Below, in pieces: positions 42,467 through 47,783 of a stretch of 64,000 nucleotides of DNA (positions within the stretch are counted from its first letter, which is position 1; every line of letters starts with the position of its first letter). Source of the DNA: Neophaeotheca triangularis (taxonomy: Eukaryota). Below the pieces are notes generated by a model, which saw only the letters and a program-made list of their open reading frames with translations, was not told the DNA's origin and searched no databases. Location of the stretch: NCBI GenBank assembly GCA_054600435.1, contig BAAIJX010000009.1, forward strand, positions 1-64,000, read 5' to 3'. A program made the translations under genes and the position numbers.

Positions 42467-43217
42467 GGCTGCGTGGGAGGCGGGTTGTGTTGGGAAGCAG
42501 TTGTTGGAGCTTTGAAGTGAGTGAGAGTGCTTGAGGGCTTGTTGGTAGTTTGCTGGTGAGTAGATTGCCGAGTACTGAGGTTGCGTCTGTGTCGATGATT
42601 GTTATCGATGGCGATGTGAGCGATGTTCTGTAGTGAATGTTGGCTCTTGGTGATATCGATGGTGCAGTCCGAGAAGTATACTTATACGGATGAAGTGGTG
42701 CTGTACCCGAACCATGGTCAAATGTTGGACGGCATTAACTCCAGTAGTTCTTTCTGCTCACTCTCCTATTGACGACCCTTCACCTTCCTTCCCTAGCAAT
42801 ATTAGATCGTTGCTGCTGCAGTAATGACTTACATGCAGGCTGAGGGCAAGTGTGAGTAGTAAGCAGCGTGGACATTGCCCTTGTATTCAACCAAGACCAA
42901 CACTACTGGCCGGGGAGCAGATTCTTCGTGTAAAAGTCTTCTTAAATCGGACGCCACCCTCAAGCCTCAGTACCAACCAGTATTGACACCCATCATGCAG
43001 ACCCGCCCACACCCTCATATCGTCACTTCGAAGCTTCATCAAGTGTCGAAGCCAACAAGTGGCGAACTCTTCACTCCCTCATCCAGCTGTGGCAAGACTA
43101 GACTAATGTTGCCGTCTTTGCTTCCTACATTCCAACCTACTTTTACAAATCCCTTGAATCTCTGAACGCCTTGCTCGCTTGAACCGCACAGAACATCCCC
43201 AGCAAATGATTCTGGTG

Positions 43218-43889
43218 TTAGATCGCCCTTCCAACATCACTGCCAGTCACAACTCCCACCTCAGTAGCCTTCCCCCCATTTACCCCATCTAAATCATACG
43301 GGCAGCTACTCGCCGCGCATATGCAATCCTCAAGCGCCTCGAACTCAATAAAATCTCCCGGCCTACTACTCCCCAACCTCTTGAGAGAATAATTGGGCGT
43401 ATTCTGGAAAATGTTAAAAGGGTCGGTACATCCGAGAAGGGCACCAGGTAAAGGACAGCCGAGTTCCTCCATGGCCTCGACGATATTCCCCGCGCAACTC
43501 CTGTGCTCACCCTGCTTGAAACCAGCATCAATGTACAGCTTGGGGAAACACGACATGAAGGTCATGTCATGCACATGCACCGTGTCCCTGGTGATTTTGA
43601 GTAGAGGTCTATCGGCGTTGGTCCAGAGGCTCTCGCCGACAGCCGGGGTGGCGCCCGAGAGGTGGTAGCGCGTGTATGCCATTGACACTTTTTCGTGCAG
43701 GGTGTTGTGAGCGTCGTCGACCCAGGCGGCGAAGTCGACGATTTGCTCGCCTTGCAGGTCTACGATGCGGAAGTGCTCGCCTTTGCGGACTTTGAAGGCG
43801 TGGCCGTGGGCGCCTGGGATGCGGTGGACGTGCAGAGTCGTCGTGGCAGGGTCCGATCCGGCATGTGTCGAGTGTTCGGGGAAGGCCAT
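43218..43889 (-). CDS. DUF1989 / urea-carboxylase-associated family protein
   Basis: FRIVDLQGEQIVDF, DTVHVHDMTFMSC, HRSCAGNI, PFNIFQN, SRPGDFIEFEALEDCICAASSCPYD. Confidence 0.88.
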   Translation of the reverse strand: MAFPEHSTHAGSDPATTTLHVHRIPGAHGHAFKVRKGEHFRIVDLQGEQIVDFAAWVDDAHNTLHEKVSMAYTRYHLSGATPAVGESLWTNADRPLLKITRDTVHVHDMTFMSCFPKLYIDAGFKQGEHRSCAGNIVEAMEELGCPLPGALLGCTDPFNIFQNTPNYSLKRLGSSRPGDFIEFEALEDCICAASSCPYDLDGVNGGKATEVGVVTGSDVGRAI

Positions 43890-44711
43890 GTTGAAGTGTA
43901 ATGGCTGGTTTTAGATGTCGTTGGAGATGGTGGAGGGGAAGAGCAAAAGGAGGAGATGGAAGGCGAGGGAGTTTATCTCGCTACATCTGGATGTCTTGCC
44001 AACCAATCGCTACCTTGACTCCTGCAGCAGCTACATACCTCCTACCTTACTGTTGAAGCTCTGGGTAGCTGGAGTGGCCACTACCTAGTACAATACCTAC
44101 CTACCTAACTAAAATGCCCGACTAAATGACGTCGAGTCAGTCAGCCCTGCCCGCCCGCGCCGGGGAGGGCTCGGTTCCTGGCGCGCATTAACGAATGCGG
44201 TCTGAGCCTTGGTAGTGGGAACCCGCCCGCCTTCTACTTATTACTGTATGTACCTATCGAACATTACTAGTAATATCTTGCTTGCTTGCTTGACAGCCCG
44301 AGCACATCACCAGATCGGGCATCGGCAGCAGCGCTCGGCCTGTTGTCCGTTACCAAGTCCACCACCCTGGCGCCCTCATGGAAACCTTTGAAGACGCGCC
44401 TCACCACTAACAAGTCCAAAGACCGTATCTCAGTCCTTCGCTATCTCTTCCCCAACCTCGCCGCCAGAGCTAGGACTCGCCTTGACAACTTCCGTTTCAC
44501 ATATCTACCCGGCCTCAAACACCGCACCCAGTCGCGCATCTACGCTCATATAGTATCACGACAGAAGCGGAAGGAACTCAAGTCCTTGGCCAGGTCAACT
44601 AATAACAAGTCGAGTCGTATTCTTTCTCTCCTCAAACGCCGGGGTGACAGTCGGTTCTGGGGCTTCCGCCCTTTGAAAGATGCAGAGGCTGCTCAAAAGT
44701 CGGCAGAGGAT

Positions 44712-47700
44712 ATGTCTTCTTCTTACGCACAATCAGCTGCTAGCGGGACTTTGGACCAATTGAGGAGCGAGGGCCGGGAACCGGGTGCGAGAAGGAAGAA
44801 GTTGGCAGGATACTTGAAAGCAGCAAATGAATTACGCCAGAGTTATATGCAAGGTGGGGATAGCCATTTCACAAAGGATGGCAATCACGAGGCAAGTGAC
44901 GGGGCATTTCCCGATGCTGCCGTTGTCAGGCATGGCGGGGAGGAAATGATTTTGTTCCCTAGCTACGGGAGGGAACATGTCAAAAGTAAGGTGAGACTGC
45001 ACATCGAAGTGCTGCTGAAGGACAGGATGTTGTTGCTGACGCCCCTCAAGCCCCCTACTGCTGAGCCTGGCACGATACAGGAGGTTTCTGGTACCGGGCG
45101 GGACTACAGAGACACCGTCGGCGCCGGCGATGCAGAGTTTTGGAAGGAACAGTGGGAACGCCATGAGAACGATACGGCTGTTGTCGACGTGGATGTGAGA
45201 GGATGGATATACTGCCCACACAAAGGCCCAACGACACGCAAGCAACGACTTATGATAGGTTTGGCCAGACAGTTATCGGGTATCCCAGCCCCGCCGACTA
45301 CAAAGTCAGCAGACTCCAGCAAATCCAACAGCAGATCATCAAGCCCACAAGCGGGCAGGAGTCCCTCGTCACAAGAGGAGGAGCTTGTAGCTAAGGAAGC
45401 AGATCACATCATGCGCAAAGGAGAGGCTGAAGCAGACATTGCAGGCCGCGGTGGCTTCAGCGAGAGACCTGGGAGAAGGCCAACAGATACTGACAGTCTG
45501 TACAACAACGCCAACAGCTCCAACGAAAGGCTGTCGCACGTGCGAACCAACGACAGCGATTCTACGTACGAGAAACGCACATCCTGGACACAGAGCACCA
45601 AGATGTCTTCGGCGGAGTTGGCAGTGGCTAACGCTCACCTCCTTACCCGTCTGAAACCTTTCATGGCTAACCCTCTAGCCGGACAGGCTGTTTCGGCATT
45701 CTTCTTCAACGACTCCATTTCCCGACAAAGGACAGTCTACACTGACGACTCTGGACACTTCTCATTCCGGGCAGCTCTCGACTTTGAGCCTACACATGTG
45801 CGCATTCTTGGCGGCGAGAAGCTTAGTGCGACGGAAGCAGTGAATATCACCCAGCCTCACGGTGTGAGCTTGATTAGCGACATTGACGATACGATAAAAC
45901 ACTCTGCCATCTCCTCTGGGGCTAGGGAAATCTTTCGTAACGCTTTCACTCGTAACCTCGAAGACTTGACCATTCCGGGGGTCAAGGAGTGGTATACCTC
46001 TCTTGCCGAAGATCATGGCGTCAAACTGCACTACGTGTCCAACTCTCCATGGCAAATGTATCCCATCTTGACAAGTTACTTCAAAATGGCAGGACTGCCG
46101 CCCGGGAGCTTCCATCTGAAGCAGTACACAGGTATGCTTCAAGGTATCTTCGAGCCTGTTGCAGAAAGGAAGAAGAGTAGTTTGGATAAGATCATGCGGG
46201 ACTTTCCAGACAGAAAGTTTCTCTTGGTGGGAGACAGTGGTGAAGCCGATCTCGAAGTTTATACCGATGTCGTCCTGGACAACCCAGGTCGCATTCTTGG
46301 CGTGTTTATTAGAGATGTCACCACGCCACTGAGAAGTGGCTATTTCGACCCCAGCAACGGTGGTAGCAGCGGTACCGGCGGCAAGAGGCATTCTCGAAAC
46401 AACTCCCGAACACATTCGAGGGCTAGAAGCACCGACAGTCTGGCCATGAGCAAAAGACTGAGCCGGCCGGATGACATTCGAGACGACGACGCAGATCTAC
46501 GGGCAGCGATTGCCGCGTCACTTGAAGATATGGAAGAAGAAGCCCGCATGGCTAGGAGGGGAATCAACCCGGATCGTTACGGAGACACCAGGTTTGGCCA
46601 GCAGAGGAGAGGATCAGGTCCAGCAGCACCAGAGGCACATGCAATGGTGCAAAGTCCGGAAGAAGAAGACCTGATAGATTTTGGACAGTACGACGGCGTC
46701 GCAAATGATCAGACCGGCCGACCAAATGCAATGAGAGCAAATACTGCATCTGCTGCAACACTGAAGCCAACGCCCAGTCCACCGCCAAAGCCAAACGTCT
46801 TGCGCAGTGTCTCGCCCTCGGCATCCCTCCAACCAACCATGTCAGGAGATTCAGATTCTTCGAATAAGATGCCTCCGCCTAGACCGAGGAAGCCATCTTC
46901 GGCTGTCAAGCCACCCGCTCCTATAGTCGCGGAGGATGCACCGCCGGTTCCCAAACCCCTTACGAAGCAGCGTAAGGGCCCATCACTGCAACCCCAGCAG
47001 TCGCAAATATCTAACCCGTCTCCCTTGCGAGCGGTCCAACGGCAAGGCTCCCCATCAGCTCAAGGCCCGCCATCGCCAGAAGAGAAGCGTAAGCCGCCCC
47101 TCCCCGTCAGATCGAAAGGCTACCGTGAGACCGCCAAAGACTTGGCGACCCGGGCCTACAACCACGTTCCCGAGTACGAAACCGTAAGAGACGCGGGTTA
47201 CGGTGCCGCGAGCTACGCTCACAGCTTAGTCTCTTCTTCCGATGACTACGCGAGCCCAGCACCCCAAGGCCAACAACTGCGCCAGGGTTCCATGCGTCCC
47301 AACGGCCCCAACCCAAACGAACGCCGCCCCCCTCTCGCACCTCCCCCACCGCGCAGAGCAGGCACAGGCAACAGCGTCCCCGCCCAACCGAGCGCCCTCA
47401 ACCCGCTCCGCGCCAACAGCCCCCGCCTCAACACTCTGCCGAACCCCTCCTCCTCCCTCGCCTCCAATTATCCCTACCCAACATCCTCCGCGGCCAATAC
47501 CAACTCCTCTTTCACCCACCAGCCCGCTCCGCTATCAAGCTACTCTGCGCACTCGAGCCCGAACAGCACGCCCGCTGCTAGTCCTGGCGAGGGTCTGAGT
47601 CGGAAAGAAGCGATGTGGAAGCAGCGGCTTGCGAGGGCTAGGGGGATTATGGATGAGAAGGGAGTCGTGCTGAGGACTTGGCGCGAGGGATGGGAGCTGA

Positions 47701-47783
47701 AGGATTTGTCTGTTAAGTTGGTTGAGGAGGAGGAGAGGAGGATTCAGAGGGAGGGGAAGAGGGGAAGGGGGAGGGGTCAGTGA
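44712..47783 (+). CDS. APP1: App1-like phosphatidate phosphatase (DUF2183) with Pro-rich tail; intron 44991-45050; first in-frame ATG 44712, possible CUG start 44367
   Basis: Catalytic ISDIDDTIK, HYVSNSPWQMY, FLLVGDSGEADLEVY, IFIRDV-like motif; GARRKKLAGYLKAANELRQSY N-terminal block. Confidence 0.9.
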   Translation: MSSSYAQSAASGTLDQLRSEGREPGARRKKLAGYLKAANELRQSYMQGGDSHFTKDGNHEASDGAFPDAAVVRHGGEEMILFPSYGREHVKSKVRLHIEVLLKDRMLLLTPLKPPTAEPGTIQEVSGTGRDYRDTVGAGDAEFWKEQWERHENDTAVVDVDVRGWIYCPHKGPTTRKQRLMIGLARQLSGIPAPPTTKSADSSKSNSRSSSPQAGRSPSSQEEELVAKEADHIMRKGEAEADIAGRGGFSERPGRRPTDTDSLYNNANSSNERLSHVRTNDSDSTYEKRTSWTQSTKMSSAELAVANAHLLTRLKPFMANPLAGQAVSAFFFNDSISRQRTVYTDDSGHFSFRAALDFEPTHVRILGGEKLSATEAVNITQPHGVSLISDIDDTIKHSAISSGAREIFRNAFTRNLEDLTIPGVKEWYTSLAEDHGVKLHYVSNSPWQMYPILTSYFKMAGLPPGSFHLKQYTGMLQGIFEPVAERKKSSLDKIMRDFPDRKFLLVGDSGEADLEVYTDVVLDNPGRILGVFIRDVTTPLRSGYFDPSNGGSSGTGGKRHSRNNSRTHSRARSTDSLAMSKRLSRPDDIRDDDADLRAAIAASLEDMEEEARMARRGINPDRYGDTRFGQQRRGSGPAAPEAHAMVQSPEEEDLIDFGQYDGVANDQTGRPNAMRANTASAATLKPTPSPPPKPNVLRSVSPSASLQPTMSGDSDSSNKMPPPRPRKPSSAVKPPAPIVAEDAPPVPKPLTKQRKGPSLQPQQSQISNPSPLRAVQRQGSPSAQGPPSPEEKRKPPLPVRSKGYRETAKDLATRAYNHVPEYETVRDAGYGAASYAHSLVSSSDDYASPAPQGQQLRQGSMRPNGPNPNERRPPLAPPPPRRAGTGNSVPAQPSALNPLRANSPRLNTLPNPSSSLASNYPYPTSSAANTNSSFTHQPAPLSSYSAHSSPNSTPAASPGEGLSRKEAMWKQRLARARGIMDEKGVVLRTWREGWELKDLSVKLVEEEERRIQREGKRGRGRGQ

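Follow-up and report, generated by a model that had tools for sequence, protein, structure and literature searches.

The window analysed here is a stretch of 64,000 nucleotides of Neophaeotheca triangularis DNA (contig BAAIJX010000009.1, positions 1 to 64,000). Its forward strand carries a gene that sequence comparison identifies, by domain, motif and fold, as that of an App1-family phosphatidate phosphatase. Indeed, the Pfam model PF09949 is matched over its full length (E 6.7e-51; score 172.7 bits, cut-off 27.1), a DIDDT motif lies at 45879-45893 (residues 505-509), and the best Foldseek matches are to the C-terminal domain of Nir2 and to lipin/Pah. A paralogue (L002) has 30% identity. The features discussed below are the following, all on the forward strand:

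44246..44313, +, possible 5'-leader intron, from sequence signals only (GTATGT donor at 44246; acceptor either 44297 or 44313)
44367..47783, +, putative long isoform, complete reading frame of 1138 codons (1118 amino acids if the 60-nt intron is spliced)
44367..44369, +, proposed near-cognate start CTG of the long isoform, presumed to act as a start because the aligned codons are CTG or GTG in an A-3/G+4 context
44367..44711, +, Arg-rich N-terminal extension of 115 codons, conserved in homologues and under purifying selection
44378..44410, +, out-of-frame uORF of 10 codons, in weak context (C-3) and not conserved
44430..44597, +, conserved core of the extension, with a short helix (residues 23-27) and a long predicted helix (residues 31-77)
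44680..44763, +, conserved uORF in the +1 frame, 27 codons, overlapping AUG2, with a strong-context AUG 32 nt before AUG2
44712..44714, +, AUG2, the first in-frame AUG and presumed start of the short isoform, with a purine at -3 in 8/8 loci and a Met there in almost every homologue
44991..45050, +, probable 60-nt in-frame intron (GTGAGA ... GCTGAC ... AAG), from sequence signals and an intron at the same place in relatives
45864..46316, +, APP1 catalytic domain, HAD-like, containing the DxDxT motif

The App1-family frame runs from stop to stop over 44274-47783 and shows 146 open codons before its first in-frame ATG, at 44712, in agreement with the minimum of 142 given by the first-pass annotation; 115 codons separate this ATG from the in-frame CTG at 44367. 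At the stop frequency of the window, 146 open codons would occur by chance with a probability of ~0.01, and 115 with one of ~0.03, so that the openness of the frame is by itself a weak argument, and it is conservation that decides. The probable intron at 44991-45050, which the first reading of the window had not recorded, has a counterpart in L004, L006 and L007 and none in L003, L005, L008 and L009.

The comparison set consists of the window and seven related loci with upstream DNA (hereafter the eight DNA loci); L010, which begins within the coding region, was left out of the DNA comparison. Scans of viral_contigs and genome_contigs found no relative, and a profile search restricted to the lengths 'longer' gave four matches only. 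A 151-nt contig from an RNA library, which may be DNA and carries no strand, matches 44491-44641 with one mismatch. The RNA contigs, which come from three runs of a single marine metatranscriptome study (share 0.05-0.08) and show neither ends nor strand, include none over 43000-44335.

A conserved extension with a weak start

The first-pass annotation had read the 115 codons upstream of AUG2 as a translated extension begun at a near-cognate codon, and had named frame conservation, a dN/dS below 1 and a conserved near-cognate codon as the checks to be made. Comparison strongly supports this reading in 8/8 loci. The frame is open and free of in-frame AUG in all seven related loci. Among the 28 pairs of extension sequences, dN/dS is 0.21-0.49 in the 18 that are unsaturated, the other 10 being saturated; these values come from a codon alignment derived from the protein alignment, with synonymous sites close to saturation, and pN is smaller than pS in every one of the 28 pairs. 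Amino-acid identity is 0.35 in the main frame versus 0.23 and 0.21 in the other two. Homologues with the extension are found in Dothideo-, Sordario-, Eurotio-, Leotio- and Lecanoromycetes. That the extension is coding and conserved may thus be taken, from these sequence comparisons, as practically certain.

At the aligned start site, which was chosen by eye from the alignment, CTG stands in five of the eight DNA loci and GTG in three, all with A-3/G+4. The context of the CTG at 44367 is as strong as had been claimed for it (CACCACC-CTG-GCG, with A-3 and G+4), and a context of the A-3/G+4 type surrounds only 13 of 195 local Leu or Val codons, where CTG makes up 0.21 of the Leu codons and GTG 0.29 of the Val codons. 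The 5' edge of protein conservation coincides with an L/V-A-P site, and it is there that the near-cognate codon stands; in-frame stops lie 2 codons upstream of the start site in L006, 10 in L004 and 13 in L003. No stable RNA structure was found 3' of the CUG (z +1.26). In Pleosporales the near-cognate codon is replaced by an AUG in poor context: 14 of the 16 Met-at-start proteins with upstream residues on record have a Trp before Met-Pro, which means, Trp being TGG, that this AUG has U-3. All 14 come from genera that we assign to Pleosporales. The poverty of this context suggests that a weak start has been retained there by a different route, and conservation of a weak start at this site as such appears very probable.

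A conserved overlapping uAUG

The first-pass annotation had also pointed to an out-of-frame uORF at ATG 44378. The ORF of 10 codons is indeed present in the window, but it is not conserved: in the seven other loci there is no ATG at that place, nor any in its frame within the extension, and it was rejected as a conserved element. A second out-of-frame ATG, absent from that annotation, lies at 44680 (AAG-ATG-C). In 8/8 DNA loci a uAUG with A-3 is found in the +1 frame at -26, -29 or -32 from AUG2, and its uORF stops 52-106 nt beyond AUG2.

This uAUG leaves a footprint in the protein alignment, where one column is N, D or H in 114 of 115 sequences and the next is E, A, V, G or D in 113 of 115, that is, xAT Gxx. 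The footprint [DNHY][GAEVD] is carried by 132 of 133 homologues, against 72.6 by shuffling, and by 57 of 62 later-fetched Sordariomycete-type proteins, Tyr variants included, against 37.2; both shuffle counts overstate independence because the protein sets are phylogenetically clumped. The overlap of the uORF with AUG2 rests on the DNA loci, homologues known as proteins only carrying the footprint alone. Between uAUG and AUG2 there is no stop in 85 codons (P 0.064, suggestive only). Conservation of the overlapping uAUG at the nucleotide level is, on the strength of these alignments, highly likely.

From the start site to the uAUG, other out-of-frame AUGs show no depletion (9 were counted where 8.7 are expected; with a purine at -3, 4 against 4.0), and the scanning route to AUG2 has therefore not been kept clear. 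Control by reinitiation of the GCN4 type was considered and rejected: there is no conserved short uORF1, and the distance from uAUG to AUG2 is too small.

Two putative isoforms and the destination of the longer one

We propose that a single App1 mRNA would give two isoforms through scanning. A few 40S subunits would initiate at the weak CUG at 44367 (elsewhere a GUG or the poor-context AUG of Pleosporales) and produce a long App1, whose extension of ~95-120 residues, rich in Arg and poor in acidic residues, would most likely direct it to mitochondria. Most subunits would scan past the CUG and be captured by the strong out-of-frame AUG 26-32 nt before AUG2; since the uORF overlaps AUG2, these ribosomes would yield no App1. 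The short, yeast-type App1 (yeast App1, we assume, begins at about AUG2) would come only from subunits that leak past the uAUG, and the trap would thereby reduce the short form to an amount nearer that of the long one with its weak start. To the whole of this explanation, mitochondrial long isoform included, we give a probability of about 0.55. As for its parts, the sequences make production of both isoforms from one transcript by leaky scanning fairly probable, and a mitochondrial destination slightly better than an even guess.

The composition of the extension argues for such a destination. As first described, the peptide is basic with few acidic residues: over 16 sequences Arg amounts to 17.8% and Asp plus Glu to 4.1%, the net charge is +18 to +25, and the first 90 residues hold 0-4 acidic ones. 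Arg thus stands far above Lys and acidic residues are almost absent across 90 residues, a pattern that resembles presequences, which are usually much less conserved than the core of this extension. No transmembrane segment was seen in the 16 sequences (top 19-residue hydropathy 0.79), no conserved cleavage motif was recognised by eye, and the extension has no usable match in the ESM Atlas and none in Pfam (best E 0.4). The best 18-mer hydrophobic moment in the first 40 residues ranges from 0.30 to 0.65 across the 16 sequences, the window having the lowest value. Targeting to an organelle by the extension is plausible from its presequence-like composition, but it is long and its core unusually conserved. 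In fungi, weak-start mitochondrial isoforms are common, according to excerpts of PMC7049704 and PMC6582344.

The same isoforms and the same control might instead, more tentatively, serve an extension that is not a cleaved import presequence but a retained polybasic helical module, which would bind a partner protein or anionic membranes (phosphatidate or cardiolipin; nuclear envelope, lipid droplet, mitochondrial surface). This would account for the mean column conservation of the core, 0.73 against 0.39-0.59 in the variable flanks, for its invariant aromatic and Arg positions, and for the single 47-residue helix that AlphaFold2 predicts with confidence (pLDDT 85-91 over residues 31-70); the Lys/Arg clusters could also act as an NLS. 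Yeast Pah1, in an excerpt of PMC11832324, reaches its membrane substrate via an N-terminal amphipathic helix. Yet the hydrophobic moment of the conserved core is not above that of shuffles (profile P 0.13, 0.95 and 0.26; 390/2000 shuffles), the shuffle test revealed there no segregated hydrophobic and polar faces of the Pah1 anchoring type, and the presequence-like composition again speaks against a retained module.

It is also conceivable, if somewhat doubtful, that there are two transcripts, a long mRNA giving the long isoform only and a short one, starting at or after the uAUG, giving the short isoform; the uAUG would then trap ribosomes that skip the CUG, and isoform choice would be transcriptional, with either destination. 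A strong, overlapping trap fits this, and if scanning from the long leader does not as a rule get as far as AUG2, no depletion of the out-of-frame AUGs in between would be expected, as is observed. On the other hand, it requires a leader of less than ~30 nt in 8/8 DNA loci, and L003 and L008, which could be genomic, resemble single transcript-sized contigs with the near-cognate codon. It is unlikely that the long form is the sole real product, begun exclusively at the weak start, with a uAUG that merely suppresses a truncated protein. The conserved strong overlapping uAUG would suit such a scheme, and exclusive non-AUG initiation is reported for a lipid enzyme, Kluyveromyces ISC1, in an excerpt of 10.1101/2022.03.25.485750, but AUG2 is conserved with its purine at -3, and its loss would be simpler than the maintenance of a trap. 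Least probable, and very unlikely, is entry into the extension from an AUG at 44248 on an upstream exon, across a 44-nt intron (44270-44313), the CTG being a plain Leu codon: four pairs with a fungal-like donor among 110 GT/GC-AG pairs do put an upstream ATG in frame, one with a branch-like motif, but the donor, GTAATA, is without a G at +5, the intron would be very short, ATG 44248 has U-3 and would be removed by splicing from the better donor at 44246, and protein conservation starts at L/V-A-P, with a codon limited to CTG or GTG in the A-3/G+4 context in 8/8 loci and in-frame stops 2-13 codons upstream in three relatives.

Known systems and significance

The arrangement proposed for App1 has its closest counterpart among fungal cpc-1/GCN4 homologues, some of which carry extensions begun at near-cognate codons (Ivanov et al. 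2017, PMC5487733, in excerpt). As excerpted there, a conserved non-AUG start precedes a strong-context inhibitory uORF that the extended isoform bypasses, and two Microbotryomycete homologues have the layout of App1, one near-cognate codon followed by a uORF overlapping the main ORF. App1 differs in being a lipid phosphatase gene with a single fixed start site and no conserved short uORF1 for reinitiation, in having its uAUG ~26-70 nt before AUG2, within the coding sequence of the extension, and in that one order substitutes a poor-context AUG for the near-cognate codon. Yeast GRS1 and ALA1 and the Cryptococcus aminoacyl-tRNA synthetases, enzymes with dual localisation, likewise use a weak upstream start, near-cognate or a U-3 AUG, to add a basic segment before a good in-frame AUG; the excerpts of PMC5666671 and PMC7049704 describe no conserved overlapping uAUG for these genes, and they give a median AUG spacing of 69 nt in the Cryptococcus set, against ~95-120 amino acids with a conserved core in App1. 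Saccharomyces cerevisiae App1 shares APP1_cat (PF09949), DxDxT, the lipin-like fold and a proline-rich tail, while the excerpts of PMC11832324 and PMC11631473 mention no extension, isoform or mitochondrial pool. In eIF1 and eIF5 leaders, too, conserved weak starts tie output to start-codon stringency; there, according to an excerpt of PMC3326321, poor-context uAUGs set the amount of one protein, whereas in App1 a strong-context uAUG is predicted to act on the ratio of two isoforms. Our literature search found no account of such a layout of extension and uORF for App1; it is known already from some cpc-1 homologues.

We suggest, as a speculation that may well prove wrong, that the App1 mRNA of filamentous ascomycetes is a start-codon-stringency switch rerouting phosphatidate phosphatase activity between endocytic sites and mitochondria, the long form being an undescribed mitochondrial phosphatidate phosphatase that would compete with cardiolipin synthesis or act on mitochondrial dynamics. 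Low stringency would bring more initiation at the CUG and more capture by the uAUG, and high stringency the reverse. The App1 locus would also offer a clean natural experiment on how isoform ratios are controlled: its weak start has been preserved in two ways, as CUG or GUG in good context or as AUG in bad context, while the coding sequence of the extension itself has a conserved, overlapping uORF embedded in it. If the proposed two-isoform explanation is right, the N-terminus of App1 is mis-annotated in most filamentous ascomycetes, and these fungi would own a second, differently targeted phosphatidate phosphatase that is missing from yeast-based models.

App1 and its N-terminal extension

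The window comes from a 25.4-Mb fungal genome, and its nearest named homologues in the protein search are Dothideomycetes (among the matches listed, best 120 of 574). The features concerned are:

43218-43889 (-): DUF1989 gene (PF09347, E 1.8e-32), divergent, about 480 nt from the CTG
44274-47783 (+): open frame of App1
44367-44711 (+): extension, from the proposed CUG start
44680-44763 (+): uORF opened by an out-of-frame ATG (uAUG)
44712 (+): first in-frame ATG (AUG2), start of the short form
44991-45050: probable stop-free intron, 60 nt
46482-46532: putative ubiquitin-interacting motif, a weak match (E 0.011) under the cut-off
G000:C27:162326-163021: L002, a second, shorter APP1_cat-like paralogue in the same genome (30% identity)

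The protein that follows AUG2 is an App1-family phosphatase, as the first-pass annotation had held: it matches PF09949 (E 6.7e-51), carries the DIDDT motif, and its predicted model matches the fold of Nir2 and lipin/Pah. That annotation had also seen at least 142 open codons without an in-frame ATG upstream of 44712, and a good initiation context at CTG 44367. Indeed, the upstream stop lies 146 codons before the ATG, and the CTG, with A-3 and G+4, would add 115 codons. Since so long an open stretch has a probability of 0.01-0.03 by chance, the case for the extension rests on conservation.

Residues 1-200 as query retrieved 574 proteins, Hymenoscyphus and Candelaria included; of the best 120 listed, nearly all have gene models that already contain the extension. 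Searching with a profile built from the eight extensions read from DNA gave 43 cluster representatives, whose named carriers include Onygenales, Penicillium, Aspergillus, Thyridium, Verticillium and Teloschistes. The Thyridium protein, used as query, gave 120 listed proteins, mostly Sordariomycete and 119 of them new; the pattern set here for the core (the conserved helical part, 44430-44597) recognizes 63 of the 119. There was no named match outside Pezizomycotina, in searches that did not query yeasts and basidiomycetes directly. A metagenome scan yielded eight loci, seven with upstream DNA, and the frame is open in all seven (94-107 codons from the aligned start). Within the extension, pN is lower than pS in 28/28 pairs, and the 18 unsaturated ones give dN/dS values of 0.21-0.49 (closest pair: dN 0.23, dS 0.65); amino-acid identity is 0.35 in the App1 frame versus 0.23 and 0.21 in the other two. 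Judged by these comparisons, the extension is real and conserved over the filamentous ascomycete classes sampled.

Public gene models that fuse App1 with its upstream neighbour are common: short-chain dehydrogenase domains occur in 23 of the best 120 listed for the residues 1-200 query, and DEAD-box helicase domains in 21 of the 120 listed for Thyridium. These fusions are probably annotation artefacts, caused by an extension that looks coding and has no good AUG. The existing gene call P0003 (1023 aa) reads through the probable intron. The relatives L004, L006 and L007 have an intron at this position, and L003, L005, L008 and L009 have none; L005, on a 76-kb contig, represents intron loss. The DUF1989 gene and App1 may share a promoter region. 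The N-terminus of L002 is acidic by eye.

A proposed weak start and a conserved overlapping uORF

At the aligned start site, chosen by eye, the near-cognate codon is conserved: CTG in five of the eight DNA loci (the window and seven relatives) and GTG in three, all with A-3 and G+4. Locally, CTG makes up 0.21 of Leu codons and GTG 0.29 of Val codons; the A-3/G+4 context occurs at 13 of 195 Leu/Val codons. The joint probability, 1e-5, is only indicative because the loci are related. In the proteins, K, T, I or N, which have A-initial codons, precedes L/V-A-P in 28 of 40 raw calls, about six mis-parsed rows included. Pleosporales genera have Met-Pro at this site, preceded by Trp in 14 of the 16 proteins with upstream residues on record (mostly fused gene models, assumed to be genomic read-through). 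Trp being encoded by TGG alone, the Pleosporales start would be U-3/C+4, a poor AUG context. Unfavourable U-3 AUGs precede targeting sequences in Cryptococcus (excerpts of PMC7049704). The replacement of a near-cognate codon in good context by an AUG in bad context suggests that leakiness of the App1 upstream start is itself under selection.

The uORF to which the first-pass annotation had drawn attention (ATG 44378) is present in the window; its ATG has C-3, none of the other seven loci has an equivalent, and it was rejected as a conserved element. The conserved one, at 44680, had been missed. An out-of-frame ATG precedes AUG2 in 8/8 loci, by 26 nt in four, 29 in three and 32 in the window; every one is in the +1 frame and has A-3, and six have G+4. 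The uORFs, 27-44 codons long, stop 52-106 nt beyond AUG2, and their peptides have no evident relationship by eye.

In the App1 frame the uAUG shows as two adjacent codons, xAT and then Gxx. In an alignment of 115 of 120 proteins (five without the anchor were left out), the first column holds N 53, D 47 and H 14, the second E 47, A 46, V 12, G 6 and D 2; in the column before, E and K prevail, and the A in the middle of their codons is the -3 of the uAUG. Since these chemically dissimilar residues have only these bases in common, the footprint points to a constraint at the nucleotide level. The motif is found in 132 of 133 distinct linkers, versus 72.6 expected by shuffling, or 50.4 with the added requirement of a purine at -3 (161 proteins, less 25 whose anchors failed and three duplicates). 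A later Sordariomycete set gave 57/62 versus 37.2 (25.3 with the purine), with the Tyr variants that the model predicts. Distances to the second Met, taken with looser anchors, cluster at 8-10 and 23 codons. The 85 codons between uAUG and AUG2 contain no stop (P 0.064, not significant alone).

The spacing of 26-32 nt (44680-44712 in the window, and L003-L009) is about one ribosome footprint; speculatively, pausing at AUG2 might make the following 40S queue at the uAUG. The Pleosporales spacing, about 68 nt, is unlike that of the DNA loci.

Possible role of the extension and proposed origin of two App1 forms

Averaged over 16 extensions, Arg makes up 17.8%, Lys 6.4% and Asp+Glu 4.1% of residues; their net charge is +18 to +25, and none of the 16 has a transmembrane stretch. 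Such an Arg-rich, acid-poor composition resembles a mitochondrial presequence, and we give a probability of about 0.55 to the reading that the extension targets the long form to mitochondria. AlphaFold2 predicts a disordered start, a short helix (23-27), a confident helix (31-77) and a disordered linker. Column conservation is 0.73 in the core versus 0.39-0.59 in the flanks, and so strong a core conservation is unusual in a disposable presequence. A retained polybasic module binding a membrane or a partner is a tentative second choice; other uses take the remaining probability. The hydrophobic moment of the core is not above that of shuffled sequences, a result that disfavours a classical amphipathic anchor. 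The ubiquitin-interacting motif would fit an endocytic role of App1, at a match below cut-off; its AAIAASL stretch is in the App1 family consensus.

Both forms most likely come from a single mRNA. The long form would come from a minority of ribosomes that initiate at the CUG. The majority, captured by the strong overlapping uAUG, would yield no App1, and the few leaking past it would produce the short form from AUG2. Other out-of-frame AUGs within the extension are at chance frequency (9 observed, 8.7 expected), so the path to AUG2 is not kept clear, which leaves room for reinitiation or for separate long and short transcripts, a possible but doubtful source of the two forms. The RNA evidence is limited to one 151-nt metatranscriptome contig (44491-44641) that carries no information on strand or 5' end and could derive from DNA. 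That the long form is the sole product is improbable, AUG2 itself being conserved with a purine at -3. Least likely of all, ATG 44248 would be spliced into frame by a possible 44-nt intron with a weak donor in this species, but a stronger donor at 44246 would delete that ATG, and stops in the same frame precede the start by 2, 10 and 13 codons in L006, L004 and L003.

Mitochondrial isoforms from weak starts are well known in fungi (excerpts of PMC7049704, PMC5666671 and PMC6582344). Fungal cpc-1 is a known case of a near-cognate start combined with an extension and an inhibitory uORF, and two Microbotryomycete cpc-1 homologues have the overlapping version (excerpts of PMC5487733). In the mainly openly accessible literature searched, we found no report of a weak-start or non-AUG extension of App1/YNL094W (genome-wide tables may list the gene) or of a near-cognate start in a phosphatidate phosphatase, and no title linking App1 to such a start in work on App1 with mitochondria or the actin patch; the main texts of PMC6582344 and of a Kluyveromyces preprint (10.1101/2022.03.25.485750) do not mention App1. 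The type of layout is thus known, and its occurrence at App1 is without an earlier report found. Start-codon stringency is set by eIF1 and eIF5 (excerpts of PMC3326321 and PMC5666671), and the routes to the long and short forms, both weak, would shift oppositely with it.
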